64,000 nt of DNA from a bacterium (GCA_029218465.1 JAQXRJ010000098.1:255-64254); one strand, 5' to 3'; positions 21,092 through 55,063 are shown, numbered from the stretch's first letter. Notes: generated by a model not told the origin, from the sequence alone. Program-made: numbers and translations.

Positions 21092-21444
21092 AATAATATT
21101 TTATAAGCCATGTTCTGTTCCTATTACTAGGTGACAAACATTTATCTACCATTACTGGTCCCTGAATTAGTTCTGTTCCCTCATCAAAGCTCCCCTACCA
21201 AATTTGGGTTTCTCACTCGCGGTGTTTACCTCGTTCCATTTCCTTTGTTTCCAAATTATTCGTCACTATGGCACTTTATGACTACTAAAATCATATCAAA
21301 ATGACTTAGATTTTTTCGTCGACGTTAGATTACTCTACCTAAGGTTATTTTTTCCCTTAGCACGAACACTAAAAGCATCACAGCTTTTGTGAGCATGGAC
21401 TTTCCTCTATATTATAAAAATACAGCGTTTGTCAAAATATTATT
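21092..21444 (-). ncRNA. rnpB: RNase P RNA (Firmicutes-type)
   Basis: On the minus strand: GAGGAAAGTCC (21397-21407), ACAGAACATGGCTTAT (21103-21118), and an 11-bp P1 pairing between 21434-21444 and 21092-21102. There is no ORF, and the sequence looks less AT-rich by eye than its flanks. Confidence 0.88.
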
Positions 21445-40525: not shown

Positions 40526-41167
40526 CTACCTCTGCTTTTCTTTATGTAATGGTACTAAACATTTTCTAAATTGGTCTTCTAATAAGCTAGGATACATATA
40601 TCTAAGAACAGTCCCTAACTTTAAGTTATCCATTTCAGGAACTAATCTTTGATCATTAATAATTTTTGTATAATCTAGTTCAACATCAAAAGGATATTTT
40701 ATACATTTTAAAGAAACAACTTCCCTAATAAATTCCCTTATAGCTCTGCCATTACCTTCTCTAAAAGGATGTATTCTTATTAAATCATAATAAAAAGGGC
40801 CAAGAACATACGCAAGCATGTCAACACTAGTAACAAGATTTAGCTCTTTATCATATCTTGTCATAATTTCATCCAATTCTCTGTCTATGTTTTTAGGATC
40901 AGAAAAATTATACCTATTCTTAGATAAAGTACATGTCCTAATCTTTCCTGCAAATGAATAAATATCTCCAAATATAAATTCATGTATACTAAGTAAACTG
41001 GCTTTATCACAAGCTGTAATAGAAGGGATTAAGCCTAATATAGTAAGCTTTTCTAAAACAATTTTATCTTCCTGTTTTTTTAATTCATCTTGATTAACTA
41101 TTCCTAATTTATTTTTCAAAATATTTGTTCCTTCAATTAAATAATCTTCCCAAGTATCAGTCATCAT
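40526..41167 (-). CDS. fic: Fic family protein (canonical AMPylation motif)
   Basis: HPFREGNGRAIREF matches HxFx(D/E)GNGRxxR. N-terminus has GTNILKNKLGI. The stop lies 4 nt from the pcrA start. Confidence 0.85.
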   Translation of the reverse strand: MMTDTWEDYLIEGTNILKNKLGIVNQDELKKQEDKIVLEKLTILGLIPSITACDKASLLSIHEFIFGDIYSFAGKIRTCTLSKNRYNFSDPKNIDRELDEIMTRYDKELNLVTSVDMLAYVLGPFYYDLIRIHPFREGNGRAIREFIREVVSLKCIKYPFDVELDYTKIINDQRLVPEMDNLKLGTVLRYMYPSLLEDQFRKCLVPLHKEKQR

Positions 41168-41330
41168 TTACCTCTTTCTTTAAAATTTTCTGTCTAATAC
41201 ATTCTTTTGTATTATTAAATGACTTATCATTATAGTTAATTGTACAATCGTTTTCTAAACACATATTTGCTAAAGCCATTAATAATGCTTTATGTATCAT
41301 ATTTTCACTAAATTTTTTAACTACTTCCAT
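41157..41330 (-). CDS. 57-aa ORF translationally coupled to fic (candidate Fic antitoxin / inhibitory helix protein)
   Basis: Not in track (<60 aa). Sequence: MEVVKKFSENMIHKALLMALANMCLENDCTINYNDKSFNNTKECIRQKILKKEVNDD. SD GAGGT lies 6 nt upstream. The stop overlaps the fic start by 11 nt. ALANMCLEN resembles the (S/T)xxxE(G/N) inhibitory motif. Confidence 0.5.
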   Translation of the reverse strand: MEVVKKFSENMIHKALLMALANMCLENDCTINYNDKSFNNTKECIRQKILKKEVNDD

Positions 41331-42169: not shown

Positions 42170-42622
42170 ATGAAAAGAAAAATAATTACTAATATAGCTA
42201 TCATAGGATTATTCATAATTATATGTTCTGTAATATTTAATTTTAATAGAAATAATATCAAGAATTTAAAAACAGTTAAGGTTGCTGAAGTTGCCCACAG
42301 TATTTTCTATGCACCACAATATGCAGCAGTAAGTGAAGGCTTTTTTGAGGAAGAAGGATTAAATGTAGAAATAACTTTAACACCAGGAGCTGATAAAGTA
42401 ATCGCTGCCGTACTATCAGGAGATGTTGATATTGGCTTTTCAGGAAGCGAAGCAACAATATATGTTTACAACGGAGGAGAAAAAGACTATTTAAAAACGT
42501 TTGCACAATTAACTCAAAAAGATGGTAGTTTTTTAGTATCAAGAGAAAAAATAGATAATTTTACACTTAAAGATTTAAAGGGAAAAACCATAATTGGTGG
42601 AAGAGCAGGGTATCTCAATTAA
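42170..42622 (+). pseudogene. ABC transporter substrate-binding protein (NMT1/NitT-TauT type), 5' fragment interrupted by element insertion
   Basis: Signal anchor plus the SBP fold sequence. The reading ...LKGKTIIGGRAG is followed by the element-derived residues YLN and a stop. Confidence 0.8.
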
Positions 42623-42635
42623 AGTGAGAACACAC
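42600..42635. other. attL junction
   Basis: The host reading frame ends at GCAGGG (42605-42610). The element end ATCTCAATTAAAGTGAGAAC (42612-42631) is an imperfect inverted copy of the other end. Confidence 0.65.
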
Positions 42636-42680
42636 CCTTGAAAAATAAGGAATTTCCCCGTCCTCACTTTTGATGAGCCC

Positions 42681-44309
42681 CTAGTTGCCGTCTATGACAT
42701 TGCCATTTTTGGCTATTTTTTTTACACTAATTTCATTTAGTAAATCCTGTGGATTTTTAATGTTATACTTAATTGTTATTTCTTTGTTTTGGTTGATGAT
42801 AATTTTATCAATTATATATGATAAAAGTCTTTTGTTGGGTTTTCTCATTTTTAAATACTCTTTGATGATTTCTTGGTATTCATCATTTGGTGTAATCTTG
42901 TTTTCTAGAATACCTAATTGCTTCTCTAGTTCATTTAGTATCTCATCTTGCTTTATTATCTCATTTACTATTTGATTACTAAAATCTCTATATTCTTCAA
43001 GAGTAATTACTTCATCAGCCTTATCAAAATAGATTTGTTTTTTTCTATTACTCAATTTTTCTTTTTCTAACTTACAAGCATTTATTTGACCCAACAAATT
43101 TTCTCTTAACTTATTTCTTTTAGATGAGTTCTTAAGTATTGTTTCAAAGTTAGTACTCTTAACATACTTTCTACACATATCTCTAACTTCTTTAAGCACC
43201 ATTTCTTCTAATAAAAAATAATTCATAGTGTGTGGAGTACATACTTTAAACTTACTATACTTTTGATAATAAGAACAATTTATATAAGCCCTACCGTCTT
43301 TCTTAGTTGCTATAGATATTGCATGACCGCACTCTTCACAAAACATAAACCCTTTAAGTAAATAATTTTTTGTATTGCTCTGTTGATTTTTATTTTTCTT
43401 ATAACTTTTTTGAACTACATCAAACATCTCTTTATCTATAATAGGTTCGTGTGTATTTTCTACTATAATCCAACTTTCTTTTGGTGTCCTAATCTCTTTT
43501 TTAATCTTATAGTTTATTCTTTTTCTTCTTCCTTGTGTCATATTACCTATATAAGTTTCATTGTTTAACATTTCATCAATAGTCCTAGAATTCCATAAAC
43601 CATAAGCACTAGATTTTCTACCACGATTTAAATCTGCATATACACTTGGAATAGGAACCCCCTCTTTAGATAAAGTGTCTGCAATAACTTTGCATCCCAT
43701 ACCATCATAAGCCATTTTAAATATTCTCTTAACAACTTTAGCAGCCTCTTCATCTACAACCAATTTATATCTATTATTTTCATCAAGTTTATAGCCATAT
43801 ACTGCTTTCCACCCTAGAAACCAACCTTGTTCTTTTCTATTTCTTAAAGTTCTTTTTACTTTCTTAGATGTATCTTTTGCATATTGGTCGTTGAATACTG
43901 CTTTAAATGGGGCTATATCATTACTAACATTATCTAGATAAGTGTCTATGTCATCTAGTATAGCAATATATCTTACATTGTGTTCGGGAAAATATTTTTC
44001 CATATATTCTCCAGCCTTAATGTAATCTCTACCTAGTCTTGAATAGTCTTTAGTAATAACACAATTAACATTGCCACTTTCTATATCTTTTATAAGCCTA
44101 TTAAAATCAGGTCTATCAAATGTTGTTCCACTAACACCATCATCTACATACTCATCATATATTTTAAAATTTTCATCTTGTTTGTTGATATAATCTAGAA
44201 TAATATTTCTTTGATTAGAAATAATTTCACTTTCTTGTTTCTTTTTATCTTCATCTTCACGAGATAAACGAATATAGATACCAACATTATATATTTTACT
44301 ACCTTTCAT
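42681..44309 (-). CDS. large serine recombinase (integrase)
   Basis: Resolvase catalytic domain (VGIYIRLSREDED...NQ...DDGVSGTTFDRP), recombinase domain, Cys zinc ribbon (CEECGH...C...C) and a coiled-coil tail. Confidence 0.9.
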   Translation of the reverse strand: MKGSKIYNVGIYIRLSREDEDKKKQESEIISNQRNIILDYINKQDENFKIYDEYVDDGVSGTTFDRPDFNRLIKDIESGNVNCVITKDYSRLGRDYIKAGEYMEKYFPEHNVRYIAILDDIDTYLDNVSNDIAPFKAVFNDQYAKDTSKKVKRTLRNRKEQGWFLGWKAVYGYKLDENNRYKLVVDEEAAKVVKRIFKMAYDGMGCKVIADTLSKEGVPIPSVYADLNRGRKSSAYGLWNSRTIDEMLNNETYIGNMTQGRRKRINYKIKKEIRTPKESWIIVENTHEPIIDKEMFDVVQKSYKKNKNQQSNTKNYLLKGFMFCEECGHAISIATKKDGRAYINCSYYQKYSKFKVCTPHTMNYFLLEEMVLKEVRDMCRKYVKSTNFETILKNSSKRNKLRENLLGQINACKLEKEKLSNRKKQIYFDKADEVITLEEYRDFSNQIVNEIIKQDEILNELEKQLGILENKITPNDEYQEIIKEYLKMRKPNKRLLSYIIDKIIINQNKEITIKYNIKNPQDLLNEISVKKIAKNGNVIDGN

Positions 44310-44386
44310 ATTACCTCCTCCAAGGGTAAAATATATAATCTAATTACATATATATTATACCACTTTTTGCCTTATTTTTAAAGGGT

Positions 44387-44494
44387 TCAGACCAAATCCA
44401 ACTCATAAAATTCATAATAAAAATCTACTAAAAATTGTTCTATTATTTCTTGCAAACTTCTGCCTTCTTCATTAAACTCACTTTTTATAATCAT
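44387..44494 (-). CDS. 35-aa ORF upstream of the recombinase gene
   Basis: Hand translation MIIKSEFNEEGRSLQEIIEQFLVDFYYEFYELDLV, with SD GGTGGA 5 nt upstream. Function unknown. Confidence 0.3.
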   Translation of the reverse strand: MIIKSEFNEEGRSLQEIIEQFLVDFYYEFYELDLV

Positions 44495-44794
44495 AAATTC
44501 CACCTATTAAACCCTATGCTAGAAGTAATTCTTTTATAAGTCCTTTCTATTTCCGCTTAAGCAACTATAGAATACCAAGAACAAAAAAGAAATTCTTGTT
44601 TAAAAAACATATAAAAAAATGCAAAAATGAACATAATAAAACCCTTATAGATAAAGGGCTAGAGAAATTTTGATAACCGATTTTTCAAGCAAAAAAGCAA
44701 TTTTTAAGGGTATTTTAATTCGCAAAAAACTTTGTTAAGATGAAATCACAAAGGCAAGGAACCAACCTTTGAAAAACTGAAAGGAGGAACAAAA

Positions 44795-45022
44795 ATGATA
44801 GTTGATGATTATAAAATTAAGTTAGAAGTTATTAAACTTGCTATTATGAAACACACAGGAAGAGAAATCAATGAAGAATTATTAAATAGATTTTGTAAAT
44901 ATCTAACAATGGAATATGAAAACAACACATCTAAAAATAGTATTGATAATAGAATAAACAGTATTTGTAAAACTATTAACACTAAATACGATAAATACAT
45001 AAGAATTATCAATGCTAACTAA
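44795..45022 (+). CDS. hypothetical 75-aa protein (element)
   Basis: Strong SD AAAGGAGG 7 nt upstream. No recognisable motif. Confidence 0.5.
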   Translation: MIVDDYKIKLEVIKLAIMKHTGREINEELLNRFCKYLTMEYENNTSKNSIDNRINSICKTINTKYDKYIRIINAN

Positions 45023-45120
45023 TTTAAGTTGAATTAGTTTAATTTTATCAAGTTTAAACAAGATTAAACCCCTAAATAACTTGTTTAAACTAAATCTCAC
45101 ATTTCTTTATAATTTAGTTT

Positions 45121-45148
45121 AAAGTGATAGTAAAATATCACTTTTTTT
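45121..45148 (+). terminator. hairpin and T-run overlapping the next promoter
   Basis: 9-bp stem AAAGTGATA/TATCACTTT followed by TTTT, running into TGATATAAT. Confidence 0.5.
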
Positions 45149-45156
45149 GATATAAT
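45148..45156 (+). promoter_or_regulatory. extended -10 promoter element TGATATAAT
   Basis: TG-n-TATAAT lies 29 nt upstream of the ATG at 45185. Confidence 0.45.
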
Positions 45157-45184
45157 AACAACCAATTCTATTAAGGGGGATTTT

Positions 45185-46324
45185 ATGAGAAGACATAATC
45201 ATTTAACTGATGATATATTTAAAAATAGTAAGTATGTTGCATTTGTAGAGAAAACACACAACATAAAGAATTTCAGAAAAGAATATAGAGAACACTATGA
45301 TATGATTTTAGACATATATAAAACCTTTATTCTACTAAATAATTGTTTCTTTAGTGATAGTAATTTATCTAATGCTGACAAAGTAGAAAATGCTCTAAAG
45401 ATTATAGAAGATTTACTTTTTGTTGATTATGAAGAAAGTGAAAAACATAAATATAGAGTTCAAGACATAAGAGATATTTTAGATAAGAGATGTAGGCATA
45501 TTTATAATCTAATTGAAGAGTGGCATAATGATTTAGAAACCTTAACTAGTAAAGATATAAACAATTCAATTACTCTTAAGAATATGAAAAAAGATATAGA
45601 AAAAGAAATGGCTGACCTTGAGTTTGCTGAATTTGATAGCATAAATCTAGAAAACATTTCTTACCAAAAGAACACTATAAAGAATTATAGAAATTACACA
45701 AAACACTTTTCTAAGTTTGATAACATCTACATTAAAAGCAAAGAGTTTAAACAGGAGTTTAAAAACAAGTTTTATGAGAATAATGGTGTTAAATTAGATA
45801 ATAACGATTTAAATAAACTAGGCTTACTATTTAAACTACTCTCTTCACTAAATAATGGGTTAGTAAATATAATTACTGATTATAAACTTGATGAGGAAAT
45901 TACACAAGGAAAAAGCCCAGATGAACTATATAAGATATATCTAAAATCTTGCAATATAGATTATGAAAATGAAAACTTTATAGACAATTCTCAAAACTTT
46001 TTATGTTTTCTAGGCATTATTAAAAATAAAATTGATGAAGAATTACATTTTAATAACACAATTCTACTTGAAAGATTTGATTTATTCTTCTTCTATCTAA
46101 CAATGGAACAATGTTTTTACTCTCACAAGATAAAAGTAAAATCAGACTTTATAAACAAATTACAAAATGACTTAATAGATATATATAAGCAATTTAAAGA
46201 AATTAAAAAGAAAGAAAAAGAATTATCTCTAGAAGAACTTAAGGAACAATACTTTATTCCTATATATAAGAAAGCAAACGATATGATAAAAAGGTATGGT
46301 GATGTATATGAACGAATTAGTTAA
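45185..46324 (+). CDS. hypothetical 379-aa protein (element cargo), predicted all-helical, no known motif
   Basis: Long ORF with SD AAGGGGGA upstream. Its end overlaps the next ORF. Confidence 0.6.
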   Translation: MRRHNHLTDDIFKNSKYVAFVEKTHNIKNFRKEYREHYDMILDIYKTFILLNNCFFSDSNLSNADKVENALKIIEDLLFVDYEESEKHKYRVQDIRDILDKRCRHIYNLIEEWHNDLETLTSKDINNSITLKNMKKDIEKEMADLEFAEFDSINLENISYQKNTIKNYRNYTKHFSKFDNIYIKSKEFKQEFKNKFYENNGVKLDNNDLNKLGLLFKLLSSLNNGLVNIITDYKLDEEITQGKSPDELYKIYLKSCNIDYENENFIDNSQNFLCFLGIIKNKIDEELHFNNTILLERFDLFFFYLTMEQCFYSHKIKVKSDFINKLQNDLIDIYKQFKEIKKKEKELSLEELKEQYFIPIYKKANDMIKRYGDVYERIS

Positions 46325-47171
46325 TTTTAAGAAAATAGACATTATCAAAGAAATGATAAAAGAAAAAGAACAAAGTATTGAAAGTAAAATTGATTATGAT
46401 AATACAATTCTTGGCAATATTACAATGGATTATTTTTACGATTATATAGAGCCTATGTTATTAGAATTAAATGATAAAGAAATACTTGAATATGATAGAA
46501 ATAAAATAAGAGAAAGTTCTGAAACAAGAAGAAATTATCTAAAAGCATTTTCATTTTTAAGAGAAGTAATAAATCCCAAAGAAGAAGAAAAAAATGTTAG
46601 ATTTAAAAATGATACTCAAACTATTAAAAGCCATTTTAGTATATTTGGTCTAGATAAATATAGACAACTATGTGATGACAAAGGTATATTCTTTTTAGCC
46701 TCTAATGATACAAAACCTAAAAAAGAATTTGCTGAAAAAATAAAAGAACTTTTCATTTATGAATATAAGATAACAACCTATTCAGAAAATTACATAAAAC
46801 CTTTATTAGCCAACTTAAGTAATGGTAATAAATTAAAATACTTTGTTAATCCTAAAAACGAAGAAGAAAGATATATAAACTACTCTATTGAGGCTATAAT
46901 GATGTCTATTCTTAATGGATTATTCTATACAAAAACATCTCTAGGAGAATACGAAACAATATTAAGTCTTATTGATAATGGTAGTGATGATGACAAAAAG
47001 AAACTTGCTTGGATTATGTATTTTGATGTGTTCTCAACACAATTTACTGATGAAGATTTGAAAAGAGTTTATGAAGAGGCTTTAACTTACGGACATAATA
47101 AAAATAAATACGGACAATACGATTACAACAACTACAACAAAGTTATTACAACAATTTTTGATATAAAATAA
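46308..47171 (+). CDS. hypothetical ~287-aa protein (element cargo)
   Basis: ORF overlaps the previous gene by 17 nt when started at ATG 46308 (SD GGTGA upstream); the track starts it at 46296. No known motif. Confidence 0.6.
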   Translation: MNELVNFKKIDIIKEMIKEKEQSIESKIDYDNTILGNITMDYFYDYIEPMLLELNDKEILEYDRNKIRESSETRRNYLKAFSFLREVINPKEEEKNVRFKNDTQTIKSHFSIFGLDKYRQLCDDKGIFFLASNDTKPKKEFAEKIKELFIYEYKITTYSENYIKPLLANLSNGNKLKYFVNPKNEEERYINYSIEAIMMSILNGLFYTKTSLGEYETILSLIDNGSDDDKKKLAWIMYFDVFSTQFTDEDLKRVYEEALTYGHNKNKYGQYDYNNYNKVITTIFDIK

Positions 47172-47180
47172 AATTATCAA

Positions 47181-47226
47181 CTAAACAAAAAGGAATAGAA
47201 ATCTCTAATTCTATTCCTTATTTTTC
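47181..47226. terminator. bidirectional terminator between convergent cargo genes
   Basis: 11-bp stem AAGGAATAGAA/TTCTATTCCTT (47190-47200 / 47209-47219), flanked by A-rich sequence upstream and T-rich sequence downstream on the plus strand (a U-tract follows the hairpin on either strand). Confidence 0.75.
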
Positions 47227-48002
47227 AATGCTTCTTCCATTGCTTTTTTTTCTTCTTCTCTTTGCACTAAATAATCCATTTCTTTAACTAAAACATTATT
47301 CTTTTTTAAGTTTTCTAATATGTTAAATTTAAAAATTTCTTGAATTCCGACACCATAATAATCTAAAGATTTCCATTCATTGTTTCCAATATATTGATAA
47401 CATTTAACACCAACAATTATCAATTCCTTTACTCTCTCATCATACAAAACTTGTTTAATATCTTTATAATTTACTGAATATTTAAACATTGCAACACCAT
47501 CTAGATAATTTACTCTTTTATCATAAAACAAGTAATCAAATCCATTTTCATTAACTACTATTTTTTCTTTTTTCCTATAATAAAACTCTCCAAATGCTGT
47601 CATATTAACACTAAATTTATATGCTGAGTATGGCAAAATATCAAATGCTAAACCAAAGATAAATATCAAAGAACTTATAACAGTTCTATCAAAACTATCT
47701 TCTATTAAAACTACACAAGCAATTGTAGTAATAATTACTGCTAATAGTAATAATATAGATGTTATATAGAAAGTATATACCCATTTGTGTTTTTGAGGCA
47801 TTGTTTTTTTATAATCACTAGAATAAATTTTAAATAGTTTTTTTCTTTTTGATTTATCTACCTCATATACAACCTCTTTGTTGATATCGTTAAATATTTG
47901 TTTCTCCTGTTTATTCATTTGTGAATTTTGTGAAATTTCATTTGCAGCCATATCTACTGCAACACCAGTTTCAATTACTTTGCTAATTTTATTCATTTGC
48001 AC
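47211..48002 (-). CDS. hypothetical membrane protein: cytoplasmic N-terminus, two TM helices, ~130-aa C-terminal domain
   Basis: TM helices WVYTFYITSILLLLAVIITTIACVVLI and VISSLIFIFGLAFDILPY. The architecture is reminiscent of bacterial PH (YdbS/T-like) proteins. Confidence 0.55.
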   Translation of the reverse strand: MQMNKISKVIETGVAVDMAANEISQNSQMNKQEKQIFNDINKEVVYEVDKSKRKKLFKIYSSDYKKTMPQKHKWVYTFYITSILLLLAVIITTIACVVLIEDSFDRTVISSLIFIFGLAFDILPYSAYKFSVNMTAFGEFYYRKKEKIVVNENGFDYLFYDKRVNYLDGVAMFKYSVNYKDIKQVLYDERVKELIIVGVKCYQYIGNNEWKSLDYYGVGIQEIFKFNILENLKKNNVLVKEMDYLVQREEEKKAMEEALKNKE

Positions 48003-48182
48003 TCCTCCTACTATTTAAGTATAACACACTTTTTTCTTTTTTGACATAATATCATACGAATTTATGTAAAAATTACTTTTGTAAAAAAAATATACTACGT
48101 CTGTTAAACTTAAAAACTTAACACAAGGTTATAAAATAAAATATAATTGAATTGTAAAATCTAAAAGAGATTTTGCAAGGAG

Positions 48183-48974
48183 GTGTTAAACATCTACAAA
48201 CTTTATCAAAACAAGTATTTCAACAACTTACTACTCAATATGGTTAAAGTAAAGTATATTGTAGGCAACACTATTGATACCGAAGATTTTTACTTATGCC
48301 TAAACAATGCTAATAGACAATATGACAATAGTTCTATTACATTTAAGGTTATGCTATATCTAGTTAGTCTTTTAACTGATAATGGGATTAATGATAACAC
48401 TTGTATCATCTCTACTGATGACATACAAAGAAAGTTAAGCATAAGCAATATTAACTCGTTTAAAGGCTCACTTGATTACATATCATCACTAACTTTTAAT
48501 TACAAGTTAGACAAAATTAACAAGTGGCAATATGTAGATAATATATTTGTATCATATACTCAATTTAAAGGCTATTTTAAGGTTGTATTTAGTGATGAGT
48601 TCATTACTCTACTTGATAGGTCTAAACAATTCTATCAAGTGCCTAAAAGCCTTTTAAATAGCGATATTAGGTATTACAGAAATAGTATTTTTATGGCTAA
48701 CTATATTTTGCTACACCAAAGGCGAAACATGAGGCAAGATAAGAAAAAATATAGACATACCATATCAGTTGCTAAACTACTTGATAATAGCCCATTTATA
48801 CCAAAATATGAGGAACTAGACACAAGACAAAGACAAGTATCTAAATGTATTATCAAGCCTTTTGAAAGCAACCTAAACTTTGCTTGTAGCCTACTAGGTA
48901 AAGTATGGCACTATATTGATGATGAGCCAACAAACTATATTGAGTTTGTAAAAGCCAAAATCTATGTTAGTTAG
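48183..48974 (+). CDS. putative replication initiator protein
   Basis: No strong motif. The call rests on context: its 3' end runs directly into a 21-bp-phased iteron array, and a DnaB-like helicase gene follows. The start is uncertain (GTG 48183 or ATG 48240). Confidence 0.4.
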   Translation: MLNIYKLYQNKYFNNLLLNMVKVKYIVGNTIDTEDFYLCLNNANRQYDNSSITFKVMLYLVSLLTDNGINDNTCIISTDDIQRKLSISNINSFKGSLDYISSLTFNYKLDKINKWQYVDNIFVSYTQFKGYFKVVFSDEFITLLDRSKQFYQVPKSLLNSDIRYYRNSIFMANYILLHQRRNMRQDKKKYRHTISVAKLLDNSPFIPKYEELDTRQRQVSKCIIKPFESNLNFACSLLGKVWHYIDDEPTNYIEFVKAKIYVS

Positions 48975-49029
48975 TAGGTTTAGCCTATTAGATAGTAGAT
49001 ATTCTACTTTAGATAGTAGGTGCTACTCT
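48967..49029 (+). repeat. three direct iterons TTAG(T/A)TAGTAG spaced exactly 21 bp
   Basis: Copies start at 48967, 48988 and 49009. The core reads TTAGTTAGTAGG, TTAGATAGTAGA and TTAGATAGTAGG. Confidence 0.8.
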
Positions 49030-49036
49030 TACAAAG

Positions 49037-49052
49037 CCTTTATATATAAAGG
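49037..49052. repeat. perfect 16-bp AT-rich palindrome CCTTTATATATAAAGG (candidate unwinding element)
   Basis: Read directly from the sequence. It lies immediately after the iterons. Confidence 0.7.
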
Positions 49053-49222
49053 TTTAAGAGGGGTCTATTATCTAATTATACTAATAATACTAATAGAGCT
49101 CACCAACTCTTTGAGGAGTGGTGGTCTATCTAATGAAAATGAGGAGTTTTAGGAGTAAAGATTTAACAAAACTATGCAAGAGTATATTATATTAACTACT
49201 ATACTCTAGGAGGACAAAACAA

Positions 49223-50092
49223 ATGAATACAGAGTTAAAGAATACTACTGATACATTACAAGATTATTTGTCATACATACAAGATGACACACAAGTTAAA
49301 AAGATAAGAACAGGCTTTGATAAGTTAGATAACTTGCTTAATGGTGGTTTGCCTAATGGCTTGATAACTTTAGGTGCTATACCAAGTTTAGGCAAAACTA
49401 CTTTTGCTTTGCAAGTTGCAGATAATATGGCAAGTATGGAAAATACAAAAGTTTTGCTATTCTCTTTGGAAATGACTAGATTTGATATTATCTCAAAGAG
49501 TTTAAGCCGAATAAGTTATTTAACTGATGAATTAAGCAACTATACCTTTGATGATTTACTATCAAATAATGAGATAGTAGATTATGAGGCTCTACTAACT
49601 AAATACGAGCCAATAGCGAACAACTTATACACAATAGACTATATCTATGATATACGAGATATTGAGGCTTTTATAAGACAATTTAAGGACTTGCACGAGA
49701 ACGAGAATATTGTTGTAATTATAGACTACTTACAATATATCTTGTGTGGGAACAACGGCAACGATAAGCAAGTTATAGACATAATAACTAAACGATTAAA
49801 AGAGTTAGCCAAAGAGCTTAATATTTGTATCATAGAAATTAGTAGCCTTAATAGAACCAATTATAGTGGTAGTATTACAATGGAAAGTTTTAAAGAAAGC
49901 GGAAGCATTGAATACACTAGCGATATTCTTATGGGTTTAGAATATGTTAATAATGGTGCCAATGAACGAGAATACGAGGCAAAAAGAAACCCAAGAAAGA
50001 TAACTTTAAGTGTTATTAAAAATAGATATGGGGCATTAGGAAAAATCAATTTTGATTTCTATACAACATATCATACATTTATTGAAAAATAA
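49223..50092 (+). CDS. DnaB C-terminal-domain-like (RecA-fold) helicase/ATPase
   Basis: GLITLGAIPSLGKTTFALQVADNMA (Walker A), VLLFSLEMTRFDIISKSL, and VVIIDYLQ (Walker B). There is no DnaB N-terminal domain. Confidence 0.75.
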   Translation: MNTELKNTTDTLQDYLSYIQDDTQVKKIRTGFDKLDNLLNGGLPNGLITLGAIPSLGKTTFALQVADNMASMENTKVLLFSLEMTRFDIISKSLSRISYLTDELSNYTFDDLLSNNEIVDYEALLTKYEPIANNLYTIDYIYDIRDIEAFIRQFKDLHENENIVVIIDYLQYILCGNNGNDKQVIDIITKRLKELAKELNICIIEISSLNRTNYSGSITMESFKESGSIEYTSDILMGLEYVNNGANEREYEAKRNPRKITLSVIKNRYGALGKINFDFYTTYHTFIEK

Positions 50093-50115
50093 TAAAGTAG
50101 TTTTATGTAGGGGCA

Positions 50116-50496
50116 ATGGGTACTTATAGGAAAATCATAGGAAAAACCGATAAAACCCACCCCTACCTACTACGAGGAGAAAGAAGAGTGAAAAACAAAA
50201 AGATAAACATAGAATTAGATATAGAAGATTTACTAGGGCTTAAAGAGCCAAGTAAAGATAGTTTAGAATATGACCTAAACTTTATTGTAAATAATGGTAT
50301 GGATGAATACCTTAAACTAATAGAAGATGAAAAAAGAAGAGATAGAGAGTTTGTAGAATTGTTTAAACGAAACTATAATGATATAGTAAAAATTATTGAG
50401 TTTGACCCACATAAAAGAATTGCTGTTAATTGCTATACTTGTATCAAAGGTATGGATTTATCTAAACAATATGGAAAGCCAAAAAGAAAGGAATAA
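50116..50496 (+). CDS. hypothetical protein (element); start may be GTG near 50188
   Basis: ORF only. GAGGAG lies upstream of the internal GTG. Confidence 0.4.
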   Translation: MGTYRKIIGKTDKTHPYLLRGERRVKNKKINIELDIEDLLGLKEPSKDSLEYDLNFIVNNGMDEYLKLIEDEKRRDREFVELFKRNYNDIVKIIEFDPHKRIAVNCYTCIKGMDLSKQYGKPKRKE

Positions 50497-50520
50497 GTTT
50501 GTCGCTTATTCCTATTTTAT
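50490..50520. terminator. bidirectional terminator
   Basis: 8-bp stem GGAATAAG/CTTATTCC followed by TATTTTATT. Confidence 0.6.
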
Positions 50521-50768
50521 TATTTATTCATAAGTTCATTATATTGTTTGATTTGCTCTACATTATGTTTTTGAAATTCTTTCTTAAACTCTTCCATAAT
50601 TTCTAACTTATGATTTTCTAAAAGTTCTCTATGTCTTTTAGATAAGTTCTTAATCTCTTTCAACATTTGCCCCGTTATTAACATTTCTATCATCATATTA
50701 TTCATATCTTCTGTTAAATTAAATCTTAAATCTTCCATTTTCACTATAAATACCTCTTTCATATACAT
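50520..50768 (-). CDS. hypothetical 82-aa coiled-coil protein (element)
   Basis: ORF only. Confidence 0.4.
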   Translation of the reverse strand: MYMKEVFIVKMEDLRFNLTEDMNNMMIEMLITGQMLKEIKNLSKRHRELLENHKLEIMEEFKKEFQKHNVEQIKQYNELMNK

Positions 50769-50824
50769 ATTTTTGTAATTAGAAAAATATATTTTAACCC
50801 TTATAACTATTAACTTCGTTTAAT

Positions 50825-50860
50825 TTGTCATCACTCTTGTTGAGATGGGGGGGAATGCCT
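50825..50860. other. attR junction
   Basis: Element end GTCATCACTCTTGTTGAGAT (50827-50846), then a G7 run (50847-50853), then the host sequence AATGCCTGAAATG. Confidence 0.65.
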
Positions 50861-51400
50861 GAAATGACATTAGAATGGGTTTTAAAAGAAGCTAGCATTG
50901 ATCCGAAAAAAGATGTAAAAATAGATACAAGTATAGCATTTGCAGCAATGAGTGGTGCTTTTATTGGAGGAACTGGTGACTTTGTTTCGCTATTTGAACC
51001 AACTGCTCTTGAAATAGAAAAACAAGGATATGGTTATGTAGTTGCATCACTCGGAGAATTAGGTGGAATAGTACCATATACATCTTATAGTGCAAGAATA
51101 AGCTATATTAAAAATAACAAAGATACTATAGAAAAATTTACAAAAGCTATACAAAAAGGATTAGATTTTGTACAAAATAACCCAAGTGAAACTATTGCTA
51201 AATCTATATTAGAATTTTTCCCTGACACTTCATTATCTGATTTAACAAAAGTTATTGAAAGATATAAATATCAAAATACATGGCCAAAAACAACTGAATT
51301 CACAAAAGAATCATTTGAACACTTACAAAAAATAATGATTGAAGCTAATGAATTAGATGAAATCGTTTCATATGATGAGTTAATATACTCAGGAAAATAA
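50825..51400 (+). pseudogene. ABC transporter substrate-binding protein, 3' fragment
   Basis: From GGMPEMTLEWVLKEASIDPKKD onward the frame reads as the continuation of the 42170-42622 protein. There is no ATG or SD of its own. Confidence 0.8.
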
Positions 51401-51401
51401 A

Positions 51402-52154
51402 GTGAAAGATTCAATATTAACAATTAATAATCTCAAAAAAGTTTATCACGATATAAATAGTGAAACAACAGCAATAAATGATATTTCTCTTGATATAAAA
51501 GAAAAAGAATTTATATCAATAGTTGGTCCATCTGGATGTGGAAAATCAACATTTTTATCTATTCTATCAGGATTAGAAAATAAATCCAGTGGTAATATAA
51601 TTTTAAATAATAACTTAAAAATAGGATATATGCTTCAAAGAGATTCATTATTTCCTTGGAGAACTATATATGAAAATTGTTTAATTGGTTTAGAAACAAG
51701 TCATTCTGATAATAATGAAAATAAAGAAAGAGTGAAGAACCTGTTAAAAACATATGGTTTAAAAGATTTTATGAATAAATATCCAAATTCATTGTCTGGA
51801 GGAATGAAGCAAAGAGTTGCTTTAATCAGAACACTCGCAACTAATCCAGATATTCTATTATTAGACGAGCCATTTTCAGCACTTGATTATCAAACAAGAC
51901 TAGCATTATCTGATGATGTATATAAGATAATTAAAAATGAAGGAAAAACGGCTATTATGGTTACGCACGATCTTGCTGAGGCAATTAGTTTATCAGATAG
52001 AATTGTAGTTTTAACGAAAAGACCATGTAAAATAAAAAAAATTTATGATGTAAATTTAACAAATAAATCAACACCAATTAATAACAGAAAATGTAAGGAA
52101 TTTAATTACTATTATGATAAGATATGGAGAGATTTAGATGTACACATTAAGTAA
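51402..52154 (+). CDS. ABC transporter ATP-binding protein (NitT/TauT-type)
   Basis: [35 protein letters not shown]. Confidence 0.9.
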
Positions 52155-52935
52155 GGAACATACACAATATATAAAAAAACTGAAAAATAAAAAAAGAATA
52201 ATTCTATTTTTTCAAATAATAATTATTATTTTATTCCTATTAATATGGCAAATATTATCTTCAAAAAGAATTATAAATACATTTTTGTTTTCATCTCCTT
52301 ATAATGTATATAAATGTATAATTAAATTATTTAAGTCAAATGATTTATTTAAACATGTAAATATAACCGTTTATGAAACAATTACAAGTTTTCTTATATC
52401 TAATGCCATAGGAATTTTAATTTCAACTATTCTTTGGTGGAATAATACTATTGCAAAAATAATAGATCCTTATTTAACAATTATAAATTCATTACCAAAG
52501 GTTGCACTTGGACCATTAATAATAATATGGGTAGGAGCAAGCACCAATTCAATCATATTTATGGCATTAATGATTAGCTCAATAATAAGTATTATTAACA
52601 TATATAATGCTTTTAATTCTACTGATAAAAATTTTATTACTTTAATGAAATGCTTTAAAGCATCAAAATGGCAAATATACAAAAAAGTAATAATACCAAG
52701 CAACATTTTAAATATAATAAATACTTTTAAAATAAATATAAGTATGTCTTTAATTGGAGTAATTATGGGAGAGCTTTTAGTATCAAAAGCAGGTCTTGGA
52801 TATTTAATTATGTATGGAAGTCAAGTTTTTAATATAGATTTGGTAATAACATCTGTTTTCATATTAGCAATTATATCATATGTAATGTATTATATTATCT
52901 ATTATATTGAAAAGAAATTAACTAAAAATAATTAA
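52138..52935 (+). CDS. ABC transporter permease
   Basis: Polytopic protein with an EAA-like loop region ([15 protein letters not shown]). Overlaps the ATPase gene. Confidence 0.85.
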
Positions 52936-54681
52936 TTTCTTTTTTTTATCCTCAAATATTAAAATTTTATCTTTATAATCTAAAGAAGTGTTAGGTACTT
53001 CAACTTCAATTAATTCTTTATCATTTTCGTATTCTACAACATACATAGGATAATTATCCTGATCTAATTCATATTTATATGAATCATCAATAATTATTTT
53101 TAATTTCTTGTCAGACTTTTTATAACCGATTGGTGCTTTATATTCATTAAGTTCATAATTGCCAGATATTAACTTATCTATTACAAGAATTCCATCAACA
53201 GTTTTTAGTTCATCACTATCATTTACTTTATAATATTCTTTTTTTTCTAAATCAAATAATTTAAAAATCGTTTCCTCTTTAATTACTTCACCACTTTCAC
53301 TATCTTTCTTTATTATAACAACTTTAGTCGAAAACTCTTCATCATATAAATTAAGGCTAATCAGATTTGAAGTTGTTTCATCAATAATAATTTCAAAATC
53401 ATCGACTGGTAAATAATTTTTAGTTGAATTTATCTGATGAAATTTATATTTGCCATAATACAATTCTTTAATTATTTTACCATTATCATTGGTTGTAACG
53501 ATGTCTACAATTTCATCTTTACTGTTTCTAATTTCAAAACTTATACCGCTTTCTAATTTATCGCCAAAGTATTTGTTAATCTCAATTTTTGACTTTATAG
53601 CTTTATTTTTTAATAATAAATCCACATTTAAACTGTTTTCATTTATTTCAAAAAAATATTTATCTTCATCTAACAAATAGCCTTTCATAGAAAACATTTC
53701 TTTAACGTAATATTTGCCAAAAGGCAAATTATCTACAAGTGATTCATTTTTTTCATCTATAACTAAGTTATAAATAAGTTTATCACTTATATCATATAAT
53801 CCATATTGACTTCCAATCAATTCACCTTCTCCACTGGGTATTTTTTCATTAGAATCATAATCTACTTTTGTTATTTTTAAACTACCACTTAATACATTAA
53901 CTTTAATATCAAATTTTAAGCTCTCGACATTACCAGGTGTCATAACATTTTGATAAGAACTGTCAACAAAAACAAATACATTTTTATTATAATTGGTAAA
54001 CTTCTTTTCAAATGATATAACAGATGAACCAACTTTATTAGTATTAATAACTAAATTAGATCCATTCTTATTAACCGAAATATTAGAATTATTAATACTC
54101 ATATTAAACTCGTCTAACATAGAATTAGAATCAATTAAAGTATTTGAGCTATTAATAGAATAATCATATGTTTTAAAAGCAAAACTCGATATTTTATTAT
54201 GATTATTTACTAAAGATTCAATTTCTTTAATATCATTATCATATGTTGTAATCTTTGATCCATTTAATTTATCAGTAAAATAAAAACTAGCGTCTTTGTC
54301 AATTTCTCTCCATATCATCACTTGAGTAATTGCAAACCACCTATCTGAAGTATGATTTCCATATCCATAACCATAATACGCAATTAAACTTATCTTTTTC
54401 CAAACACTATTACTTATTCCTAAATGCTTAGCGTAATCAGAGTCATATCCAGTATACTCTTTACTAGTATTTAAATTTTTAAATGGTTCAACACAATATG
54501 CAATACCACCTGAATTATCTTTTATAAACAAAGCTTGTTTATAATGAATCACTCCATTCTTAACTTTGTTAATATACACATTAGAAATCCAATCCCCAGT
54601 ATGAAATGTACTCGTTGTACTTGCATTAACATAAACAATACAACAAAAAAATAGTACTAATACAAATAATAATCTTTTCAT
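52918..54681 (-). CDS. secreted thioester-domain adhesin with Cna-B-like repeats, no canonical sorting signal
   Basis: Signal peptide MKRLLFVLVLFFCCIVYVNA (ATG 54681, preceded by GAGGAGG). Thioester motifs YCVE and ITQVMIW. C-terminus has VPNTS but no hydrophobic tail. Confidence 0.75.
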   Translation of the reverse strand: MKRLLFVLVLFFCCIVYVNASTTSTFHTGDWISNVYINKVKNGVIHYKQALFIKDNSGGIAYCVEPFKNLNTSKEYTGYDSDYAKHLGISNSVWKKISLIAYYGYGYGNHTSDRWFAITQVMIWREIDKDASFYFTDKLNGSKITTYDNDIKEIESLVNNHNKISSFAFKTYDYSINSSNTLIDSNSMLDEFNMSINNSNISVNKNGSNLVINTNKVGSSVISFEKKFTNYNKNVFVFVDSSYQNVMTPGNVESLKFDIKVNVLSGSLKITKVDYDSNEKIPSGEGELIGSQYGLYDISDKLIYNLVIDEKNESLVDNLPFGKYYVKEMFSMKGYLLDEDKYFFEINENSLNVDLLLKNKAIKSKIEINKYFGDKLESGISFEIRNSKDEIVDIVTTNDNGKIIKELYYGKYKFHQINSTKNYLPVDDFEIIIDETTSNLISLNLYDEEFSTKVVIIKKDSESGEVIKEETIFKLFDLEKKEYYKVNDSDELKTVDGILVIDKLISGNYELNEYKAPIGYKKSDKKLKIIIDDSYKYELDQDNYPMYVVEYENDKELIEVEVPNTSLDYKDKILIFEDKKKKLIIFS

Positions 54682-55063
54682 AATAACCTCCTCATTACTA
54701 TTCATTATTATTATTCGTAATTAAATACAATTTTCCTCATTATATATTTAATTATTATTGATTATATACAATCTATTTTTATTAATTATTCAATCAACAT
54801 AAAATAAATTTTTATCATCTTCCACATGAGATATTTCGATATAAGTATTTTTTTAATCATAGACCTCCTATTTAAAACTAAAAGATATAAAATTCGCAAT
54901 ATAATAAGTATCTCGTTTTCAAGCAAAAGTTCTTTTTCCGTTAAGCCCATAAGCACATCCTAATAACGAAAAAAACAAGTCTTACGAAAATAGAGGGATA
55001 GTCAAAAAAATACAAGATGTAAAATTAAATTAAATATATGCAACAACAAATTAATTAAGTTGT

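Follow-up and report, generated by a model that had tools for sequence, protein, structure and literature searches.

Several elements that are mobilised by large serine recombinases (LSRs) are known to reside in coding sequences. For instance, SPβ (SprA/SprB) and skin (SpoIVCA) are inserted in the spsM and sigK genes of Bacillus subtilis, respectively, and skinCd has been described in Clostridioides difficile (PMC4191935, PMC5499854, PMC5025042). Moreover, the gin element resides in gerE of Bacillus cereus ATCC 10987, where an LSR and a small accessory protein (GirC/GirX) rebuild the split gene (PMC5595907). The fdxN element (XisF) and the elements that fragment nifBHDK in Calothrix NIES-4101 are also serine-recombinase elements, and they cause several interruptions per gene cluster (PMC11249958). 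Durrant et al. (2022) described diverged LSRs that share one intragenic attB, such as 33 LSRs from six 50%-identity clusters that target a prolyl isomerase gene (PMC10083194). Here, we describe a 64,000-nt stretch of bacterial DNA (GCA_029218465.1 JAQXRJ010000098.1:255-64254; hereafter the window), in which an 8,241-bp element of plasmid-like, non-phage and integrative character has very probably been inserted by an LSR, thereby splitting the gene for the binding protein of an ATP-binding cassette (ABC) transporter in an uncultured low-GC gut host of the Bacilli.

Like SPβ, skin and skinCd, the element interrupts a coding sequence, and conservative recombination between its ends attL and attR would rebuild exactly the original open reading frame (ORF). 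However, those three are prophages or remnants of prophages that reside in sporulation genes and are excised in the terminal mother cell under developmental control and with the help of a dedicated directionality factor, whereas the window element is devoid of phage genes, targets a transporter gene and belongs to a horizontally mobile family. Bacteria of the window's host type are not known to sporulate. As a small non-viral intervening element, gin is the best parallel for the smallest relatives described below (2.5-3 kb) and for the idea that a micro-ORF encodes an accessory factor. Unlike the family reported here, gin is sporulation-specific, has been described in one target gene and one lineage, and is equipped with three recombinase genes. 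The clusters of Durrant et al. resemble our family because many diverged LSRs use one conserved site inside a coding sequence, but the target here is of the NMT1/SsuA type, the host clade is another one and the operon offers five further sites to unrelated LSRs. The term 'ABC' is absent from the main text of that study (PMC10083194). The elements of heterocyst-forming cyanobacteria also split functional genes and interrupt one gene cluster several times, but they are excised in terminal differentiation and inherited vertically; the window LSR scored 90 bits against the XisF model, for which the cut-off is 375.

The staphylococcal cassette chromosome (SCC) is comparable in other respects, as it is mobilised by LSRs (CcrAB/CcrC), uses one fixed attB, carries highly variable cargo and lacks transfer genes of its own. 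SCC also carries a helicase-based replication module that is thought to act after excision. However, SCC occupies the 3' end of rlmH and leaves this gene intact, and its helicase and initiator types differ from those of the window element. Assignment of the element to SCC was rejected: the LSR reached 101 bits against the curated CcrB model with its cut-off of 900, and the target is a binding-protein gene rather than rlmH. The element works like SPβ, skin and gin and shares a modular layout with SCC, but it is a member of none of them. In the literature searched, neither this element family nor LSR elements in RF39-like bacteria are described. Gene-splitting and gene-rebuilding LSR elements are already known, as are diverged LSRs sharing one intragenic attB, and no concept is changed by our findings.

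The split gene, its rebuilding and the attachment sites

The interrupted gene opens at position 42170 of the window, where it is preceded by a ribosome-binding site, and its product bears a signal or anchor. The ORF at 42170-42622 reads normally up to ...LKGKTIIGGRAG and then runs into the residues YLN and a stop codon (42620-42622). The remainder is found in the frame at 50825-51400, which reads ...RWGGMPEMTLEWVLKEA... and ends with a stop codon at 51400, directly followed by an ABC ATPase gene. On re-reading, all statements about these two frames that had been made in the initial annotation of the window hold. The 5' fragment (42170..42609, + strand) comprises residues 1-146 and the GG that forms the first two bases of codon 147, while the 3' fragment (50851..51400, + strand) extends from the third base of this codon to the stop and lacks its own start codon and ribosome-binding site. 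Deletion of positions 42610-50850, i.e. 8,241 bp, joins 42170-42609 to 50851-51400 in frame and yields a 990-nt ORF encoding 329 amino acids. The joined protein matches the Pfam families NMT1 (2.6e-27) and NMT1_2. Together with the ATPase gene (51402..52154, + strand) and a permease gene (52138..52935, + strand), both intact and located in the same operon, it can be assigned to an importer of the SsuA/TauA/NitT family with a binding protein of the NMT1/SsuA type. All NCBIfam matches of the transporter fall below their cut-offs, and Rfam detected no riboswitch upstream of the operon, which therefore gives no clue to the substrate.

Thousands of intact homologues of the joined protein were retrieved by a search of 5.8 billion proteins, and the top 120 are 72-82% identical to it, nearly all of them being 325-331 residues long. 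In an alignment with 15 intact homologues (71-81% identity; 327-331 residues), the joined protein is gap-free at the join. The join spans the invariant motif IGGRAGGMPEMT, which intact homologues of 329 residues also match without a gap, and G143, G144, R145, G148, M149, P150, E151 and M152 are invariant around it in the 15-homologue alignment. Thus, the proposal that the two fragments can be joined in frame without loss of a residue is borne out, as none of the 15 homologues has extra or missing residues at the junction.

The junctions themselves reveal how the element may have entered the gene. The site attL (42584..42633, + strand) consists of the host arm B (42584-42607), the central GG (42608-42609) and the element arm P' (42610-42633; GTATCTCAATTAAAGTGAGAACAC), while attR (50825..50874, + strand) consists of the element arm P (50825-50848; TTGTCATCACTCTTGTTGAGATGG), the GG (50849-50850) and the host arm B' (50851-50874). 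The imperfect inverted repeat noticed earlier at the two ends was found again, with 15 of 20 positions of 42612-42631 agreeing with the reverse complement of 50827-50846, and so were the runs of three and seven G residues at the two junctions and the end of the recombinase gene just inside attL, where the stop codon lies at a distance of 71 nt. Recombination of the two sites is predicted to give the attB junction ...ATAATTGGTGGAAGAGCAGGGGGAATGCCTGAAATGACA... and the attP junction ...GTCATCACTCTTGTTGAGATGGGGGTATCTCAATTAAAGTGAGAAC.... The idea that attL and attR each hold one half of a quasi-palindromic attP is supported by the reconstructed arms, which are complementary at 16 of 24 positions in the window; over 33 loci with both junctions, the mean arm complementarity is 15.7/24 for the reconstructed attP versus 9.6/24 for attB. 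The proposed GG crossover also recurs, as the central dinucleotide is GG in 31 of these 33 loci, the others being L017, which has GC, and L045, the junction of which is misaligned.

All junctions follow a common layout, with attL reading [codon 146]-GG-P' and attR reading P-GG-N GGN ATG CC. Two families of arms can be distinguished. The first, GTYATCAC-N14-GG-N14-GTGAKAAC, accompanies LSRs that are at least 67% identical to the window LSR, and the second, ...ATYATAAGTTT...CCGRTGG-GG-NCATCGG...AAACTTATRAT, belongs to the LSR clade of about 50% identity. Both att arms of the window match their family consensus. Because the symmetry is seen in the junctions of 33 loci, a symmetric attP with a GG crossover is a property of the family and not a coincidence of one locus, and the crossover can be placed at the GG with which the Gly147 codon starts.

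Some 30 nt inside attL, directly after the LSR stop codon, there is a second motif resembling the P arm (GTCCTCACTTTTGATGAGCC; 42661..42680, + strand), which shares 15 of 20 positions with the P arm (50827-50846) and constitutes an inverted repeat together with the P' arm. In L015 and L016, a similar copy follows attL, inside the attL region, and in L017 such a motif appears to act as the real attR arm, with the GC core.

The LSR gene (42681..44309, - strand) encodes 542 residues with Resolvase, Recombinase and zinc-ribbon domains. An N-terminal resolvase domain (PF00239, 1.2e-18, residues 11-162) is followed by the C-terminal domains PF07508 (Recombinase; 4.9e-25) and PF13408 (zinc ribbon; 5.9e-12), and the catalytic residue Ser16, which lies in the context YIRLSRED, is invariant across 31 homologues. 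The protein also matches the PHROG integrase family phrog_95 (1.9e-91). Judged by its full length and its catalytic motif, the LSR is intact. The exact protein is not on record in the collections searched, and IMG/VR contains no relatives of it.

Directly upstream of the LSR gene lies a micro-ORF of 38 codons (44387..44503, - strand). A peptide of 34-38 residues (e.g. ...FNENGKTLQQIIEQFL...) is kept in every LSR clade examined even though the LSRs are only about 50% identical, and the micro-ORF is found at the equivalent position in L003-L005, L012-L053 and L092. Even the minimal elements of 2.5-3 kb have kept it. The micro-ORF may encode a leader peptide or a factor with an accessory or directionality role, and it provides a testable candidate for an accessory factor.

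With a G+C content of 26%, the window is AT-rich. It contains a class B RNase P RNA (276.6 bits; 21099-21440, - strand). RNase P RNA of this class is the type of low-GC Gram-positive bacteria, which fits a host from the Bacilli.

Use of one codon by a mobile family

A profile scan for the LSR in one genome per species (185,579 species) retrieved 80 loci. Among the 49 loci with an LSR that is at least 46% identical to that of the window (46-98%), 47 contain a binding-protein gene interrupted at residue 147, and wherever the N-terminal fragment lies within one of these loci, the LSR gene adjoins it. LSRs of at most 40% identity, which come from Lachnospiraceae and others, are not located beside this gene. 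A split at the same codon with an adjoining LSR in 47 of 49 genomes is far more than expected by chance. The hosts are overwhelmingly labelled 'uncultured Bacilli bacterium', the other labels being Firmicutes CAG:822, CAG:884, Acholeplasma sp. CAG:878 and Tenericutes; we take these labels to belong to genome-reduced, RF39-like gut lineages. The diverged LSRs (down to about 46% identity) keep one attB, the conservation of which follows from the invariant motif GGRxGGMPEM that it encodes.

The elements at the Gly147 site range from about 2.5 kb to about 11 kb and vary in cargo, the smallest consisting of an Xre-type helix-turn-helix (HTH) gene, the micro-ORF and the LSR gene. Among contigs with LSRs 79-86% identical to that of the window, L003 carries the same element (88-93% nt identity); L004 and L005 carry wholly different cargo at the same codon of diverged binding-protein genes. 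The 102 cargo ORFs of the Gly147 elements in L005-L060 include those for Macro, non-specific endonuclease (Endonuclease_NS), KAP NTPase, HipA_C, ADP-ribosylglycohydrolase, reverse transcriptase (RVT_1), C5 DNA methylase, Mrr_cat, further resolvase and DnaB_C proteins or domains. By these assignments, the cargo seems to be small, varied and accessory or often defence- or toxin-like. The family documents active mobile DNA with such cargo in uncultured, genome-reduced gut Bacilli, the mobilome of which appears to be little described. It also constitutes a large natural series of LSRs (46-98% identical, with at least two att families), for which attP/attB pairs that serve a single target motif have been inferred and which could be useful for studying how integrases retain or shift their specificity and for developing orthogonal integration tools.

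The contig L003 (JGI 3300031555; 7,938 nt) corresponds to positions 42641-50819 of the window only and thus ends 27-31 nt inside both att sites. These ends may be due to branching of the assembly graph, with the element being present in more than one context in that sample. In L102, L103 and L104, which come from pig and other gut metagenomes, the 75-aa and ~380-aa backbone genes described below are combined with a different LSR, and the element is inserted beside a tRNA gene in another serine-recombinase gene at its catalytic motif (...GLYMRVST | EDQAREGF...), i.e. an LSR element is nested in an LSR gene.

One way to challenge mobility had been to ask whether every relative carries the insert with no empty site. 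Empty alleles do exist. A syntenic empty site is present in the metagenome-assembled genome (MAG) of a Bacilli member, L001, where the uninterrupted binding-protein gene shows 79% nt identity and the shared neighbourhood consists of a UvrD-family helicase, Fic, the binding protein, the ATPase, the permease and a TED/SpaA surface protein. Moreover, an exact lookup of the in silico excision products of 10 loci in about 15 billion proteins revealed that four of them exist verbatim, on 8-54 contigs each, and the 90%-identity clusters of these four products also hold split fragments. In one species, the empty allele L113 can be compared with the occupied allele L118, the flanks being 100% and 99.9% identical. 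The attB of L113 reads ...AGAAAG-GG-TGGTATGCC... (AAAG-GG-TGGT), the attL of L118 reads ...AGAAAG-GG-GGATCGAC... (AAAG-GG-GGAT) and its attR reads ...CCGAAAA-GG-TGGTATGCC... (AAAA-GG-TGGT). These junctions are exactly those predicted by the GG model, so that empty and occupied alleles of the same species agree with it at the DNA level. The numbers of the two states can differ strongly, as in the species of L053, in which the split C-terminal fragment occurs in 266 index blocks versus an intact operon on 11 contigs, all of them at most 2.8 kb long. The intact-operon contigs start a short distance before the binding-protein gene, and the permease stop codon is where, exactly or nearly, several of them end (L111-L117 vs L118-L125).

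The elements move horizontally, because the similarity of the LSRs is uncorrelated with that of the host genes: over 41 loci (820 pairs), LSR identity and host-gene identity, the latter taken over the last 115 residues of the N-terminal fragment, have a Spearman rho of -0.03. In 17 pairs, LSRs that are at least 96% identical reside in host genes that are only 54-81% identical. The window and L012, a MAG from the rabbit gut, are an example, with 98% identity of the LSRs and 62% identity of the host genes, and LSR copies from very different hosts (P0121, L012) are 97-98% identical to that of the window. The reverse case is also found, in which host genes of 90-92% identity carry LSRs of only 50% identity. 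An identical LSR protein (P0129) occurs in at least two different chromosomal backgrounds, and in L008 and L009 the attR arm of the window (52 identical nt) is joined to other host alleles, the right ends of these elements being homologous to that of the window (75-83% nt identity). Taken together, the comparisons show that the spread was not only horizontal but also recent. Co-divergence with the host and vertical retention at the site were rejected, given the rho of -0.03, the near-identical LSRs in distant hosts and the presence/absence differences within species.

The initial annotation had likened the element to skin and SPβ as an excisable regulatory switch. The split coding sequence and its exact rebuilding stand, but vertical retention does not, and a mobile family is favoured. 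Indeed, the exact rebuilding of the ORF follows from the recombination chemistry and is no evidence of a switch that is regulated by the host. A switch of the skin, SPβ, gin or heterocyst type, excised upon a cue so that the transporter is turned on in a subpopulation, is in our view improbable. It would be consistent with the gene fragments having escaped pseudogenisation and being intact ORFs in about 30 species, but recent horizontal arrival explains this, since the LSRs show no co-divergence with the host genes. The minimal elements of 2.5-3 kb (L020-L022, L025, L034, L053), which contain hardly anything besides an HTH regulator, the micro-ORF and an LSR, resemble gin (PMC5595907), and several elements in one operon recall the fragmented nif genes of Calothrix (PMC11249958). 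The far predominance of the occupied allele in the species of L053 would also suit a switch, whereas the variable, accessory or defence-like cargo speaks against it. Moreover, reduced gut Bacilli are not known to have a terminally differentiating cell type in which the loss of the circle would be harmless, which we count against a switch as well.

The proposed cycle and the operon as a target

For the mobile element favoured here, a simple cycle can be proposed. The LSR has most likely recombined attP with attB at the GG of codon 147 and thereby integrated the element, and the binding protein is truncated while the element is integrated. The ATPase and permease genes downstream have probably lost their promoter or are silenced in this state. 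Serine recombination being conservative, an exchange between attL and attR would rebuild the gene exactly and release a circle; the window copy is presumably still capable of this step. The circle could then replicate as an episome by means of a putative Rep_3-like initiator, iteron-like repeats and a DnaB-type helicase.

The putative initiator (48183..48974, + strand; 263 aa) was assigned transitively via distant homologues. It has no direct Pfam match, but among 10 distant homologues, the gathering score of Rep3_N (22.4 bits) is attained by five and narrowly missed by three more, counting scores within the homologue region aligned to the query. A single-sequence AlphaFold2 (AF2) model was unusable, with a predicted local distance difference test (pLDDT) score of 36. 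Three exact 13-nt repeats (TTAGWTAGTAGRT; 48967..49021, + strand) start at 48967, 48988 and 49009, i.e. with a spacing of 21 nt, and overlap the 3' end of the putative rep gene; they may represent an iteron-like origin. The adjacent gene (49223..50092, + strand) encodes a helicase of 289 residues with a DnaB C-terminal domain (DnaB_C 2.8e-42; phrog_19).

No capsid, terminase, portal, tail or lysis genes were detected in the element, the only PHROGs matches being the integrase and the DnaB-like helicase, and a comparison of its DNA with 50,697 phage and 72,556 plasmid records gave no meaningful match. A prophage was rejected on the grounds that structural and lysis genes and phage DNA matches are missing. 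Likewise, relaxase, coupling-protein and type IV secretion genes have no Pfam or NCBIfam matches in the window element, and an integrative and conjugative element or a mobilisable element was rejected for this reason. With its replication function deduced from the genes described above, the element is best described as an integrative, plasmid-like, non-phage element.

Several observations weigh against this reading. The records of the window's own species, i.e. the window and L010, are occupied alleles only, and none of the protein collections searched contains the intact protein of this species, to which the best match is 82% identical. The circular attP junction was found in no collection searched. 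Furthermore, the 263-aa ORF was assigned to Rep transitively and weakly, the three iteron copies were scored with a pattern that had been derived from these copies themselves, and the downstream polarity was deduced only from gene order and a terminator-like hairpin. Finally, an HTH_17 gene that adjoins the right end in several relatives, where it precedes the counterpart of a 126-aa ORF, is absent from the window copy; if its product is the directionality factor, the window copy may be unable to excise.

The uninterrupted and the circular junction of the window's own species, for which a search had been recommended, were both absent from the collections examined. The exact sequence of the in silico excision product of the window is not present among 15 billion proteins, and a 23-mer common to attL and attB of the window has no match in 241 M metagenome records. 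Degenerate patterns specific for the attP of both att families gave no match in IMG/VR or in the fetched loci, and L003, L102 and L110, three element contigs of about 8 kb, show no terminal overlap when tested for circularity. The predicted attP 20-mer has one match in IMG/VR, at positions 6574-6598 of L002 (UViG_3300035142_000030, a 76.7-kb phage contig). There, 25 nt are identical to the predicted attP centre (TTGAGATGGGGGTATCTCAATTAAA), inside a 70-aa ORF; distal arm motifs are missing, and the 8 kb around contain no LSR. Although the match is rarer than a rough estimate of chance, we judged it coincidental and rejected it as a real attP, since no context supports it; at best, it is a pseudo-site.

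One may ask whether the window copy is an immobile relic or even a chimeric join produced by metagenome assembly. The occupied alleles of the window's species, the missing HTH_17 gene and the contig L003, which breaks about 30 nt inside both ends so that the junctions seem to be hard to assemble, would agree with this explanation. However, the attR junction is reproduced by an independent assembly (L010, SRR21376882) with 99.98% identity over 5.5 kb, and the junction is thus not an assembly artefact of the window. Moreover, the LSR is of full length and has its catalytic motif, and both att arms fit the family consensus. As LSRs of 97-98% identity are found in very different hosts, transfer must have been recent and decay is unlikely. 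Overall, a relic or artefact is very improbable.

The Gly147 codon is not the only target in the operon, which is interrupted at six or more sites; the five or more further sites are used by unrelated LSR lineages. The binding-protein gene is also split around residue 75 (PGA|DKV) in L017 and L036, by an LSR that is 38% identical to that of the window, and around residue 196 (TLF|EPNA) in L020-L022, L058 and L047, by LSRs of about 24-27% identity. The ATPase is truncated just after LSGGMRQRV (residue ~141) in L020, L021, L024-L026, L032, L034 and L046 and just after VTHDLAE (residue ~196) in L054, L092, L012, L045 and L047, with an abutting LSR in two of the latter cases. The permease is truncated around residues 208-226 with an abutting LSR in L053, L058 and L118-L124, and in one species the permease-site element carries a coupling protein of the TraG/VirD4 type. 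L058 has three LSR elements in the operon. The sites in the binding protein and the ATPase all lie in strongly conserved motifs, which is the expected choice because site-specific elements need a target that is shared across species and which agrees with what Durrant et al. described for other genes (PMC10083194). Since the transporter operon is interrupted in many genomes, inference of gene content and metabolism from MAGs would wrongly score the transporter as absent or as a pseudogene. In one human-gut species, strains differ in the combination of occupied operon sites, and the ATPase-site insert of L025 contains an apparent AbiEi/AbiEii pair, recognised by eye from the translations.

The accumulation of insertions raises the question whether they have been selected as transporter knock-outs, for instance because the binding protein serves as a phage receptor or immune target. 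The presence of at least six insertion sites for unrelated LSR lineages, up to three elements per operon (L058) and the very common occupied state in at least one species would be in line with such a benefit. However, the sites fall into motifs of the highest conservation (PGADKV, GGRxGGMPEM, LFEPNA, LSGGMRQRV, VTHDLAE), as any site-specific element in need of a stable and widely shared attB would choose, and intact alleles are common across the clade. Therefore, selection for the knock-out seems unlikely to us. Neither this explanation nor a regulated switch is mutually exclusive with a mobile, plasmid-like element.

A more far-reaching and rather doubtful idea is that the operon is a dedicated landing pad with several sites, in which reversible LSR insertion and excision generate ON/OFF heterogeneity of a surface-exposed transporter at the level of the population and the micro-ORF product acts as an unusually small directionality factor. 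If true, this would be a strategy similar to phase variation or receptor masking that is common to host and elements rather than simple parasitism.

Remaining features of the insert and its surroundings

The insert also contains a 75-aa ORF (44795..45022, + strand), which is conserved in the clade-A backbone, and a gene for a conserved cargo protein of 379 residues (45185..46324, + strand), which is paired with a 291-aa ORF (46296..47171, + strand). They are followed by a 263-aa ORF with a hydrophobic stretch (47211..48002, - strand), which by eye from its translation may encode a membrane protein. None of these four ORFs received an assignment from Pfam, PHROGs, PADLOC or NCBIfam, and PADLOC detected no defence systems in the cargo of the window. 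The 379-aa protein has only 61 homologues. Its AF2 model (pLDDT 85) predicts an all-helical fold, for which Foldseek found no match in PDB or BFVD, and its sequence has no match in PDB.

At the right end, the 126-aa ORF mentioned above (50116..50496, + strand; probably about 100 residues from an internal start) and an 82-aa ORF (50520..50768, - strand) are both conserved in clade A, and a bidirectional terminator-like hairpin (50489..50513) is located between them. A promoter scan was uninformative in this AT-rich DNA, with 90 promoters found versus 80 expected.

The surroundings of the operon are also shared with L001. A Fic-domain gene, which was assigned via the syntenic gene of L001, lies just upstream of the operon together with a small overlapping upstream ORF (40526-41330, - strand). 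Just downstream of the operon, a 595-aa ORF (52918-54705, - strand) is syntenic with the gene for the TED/SpaA-domain surface protein of L001.

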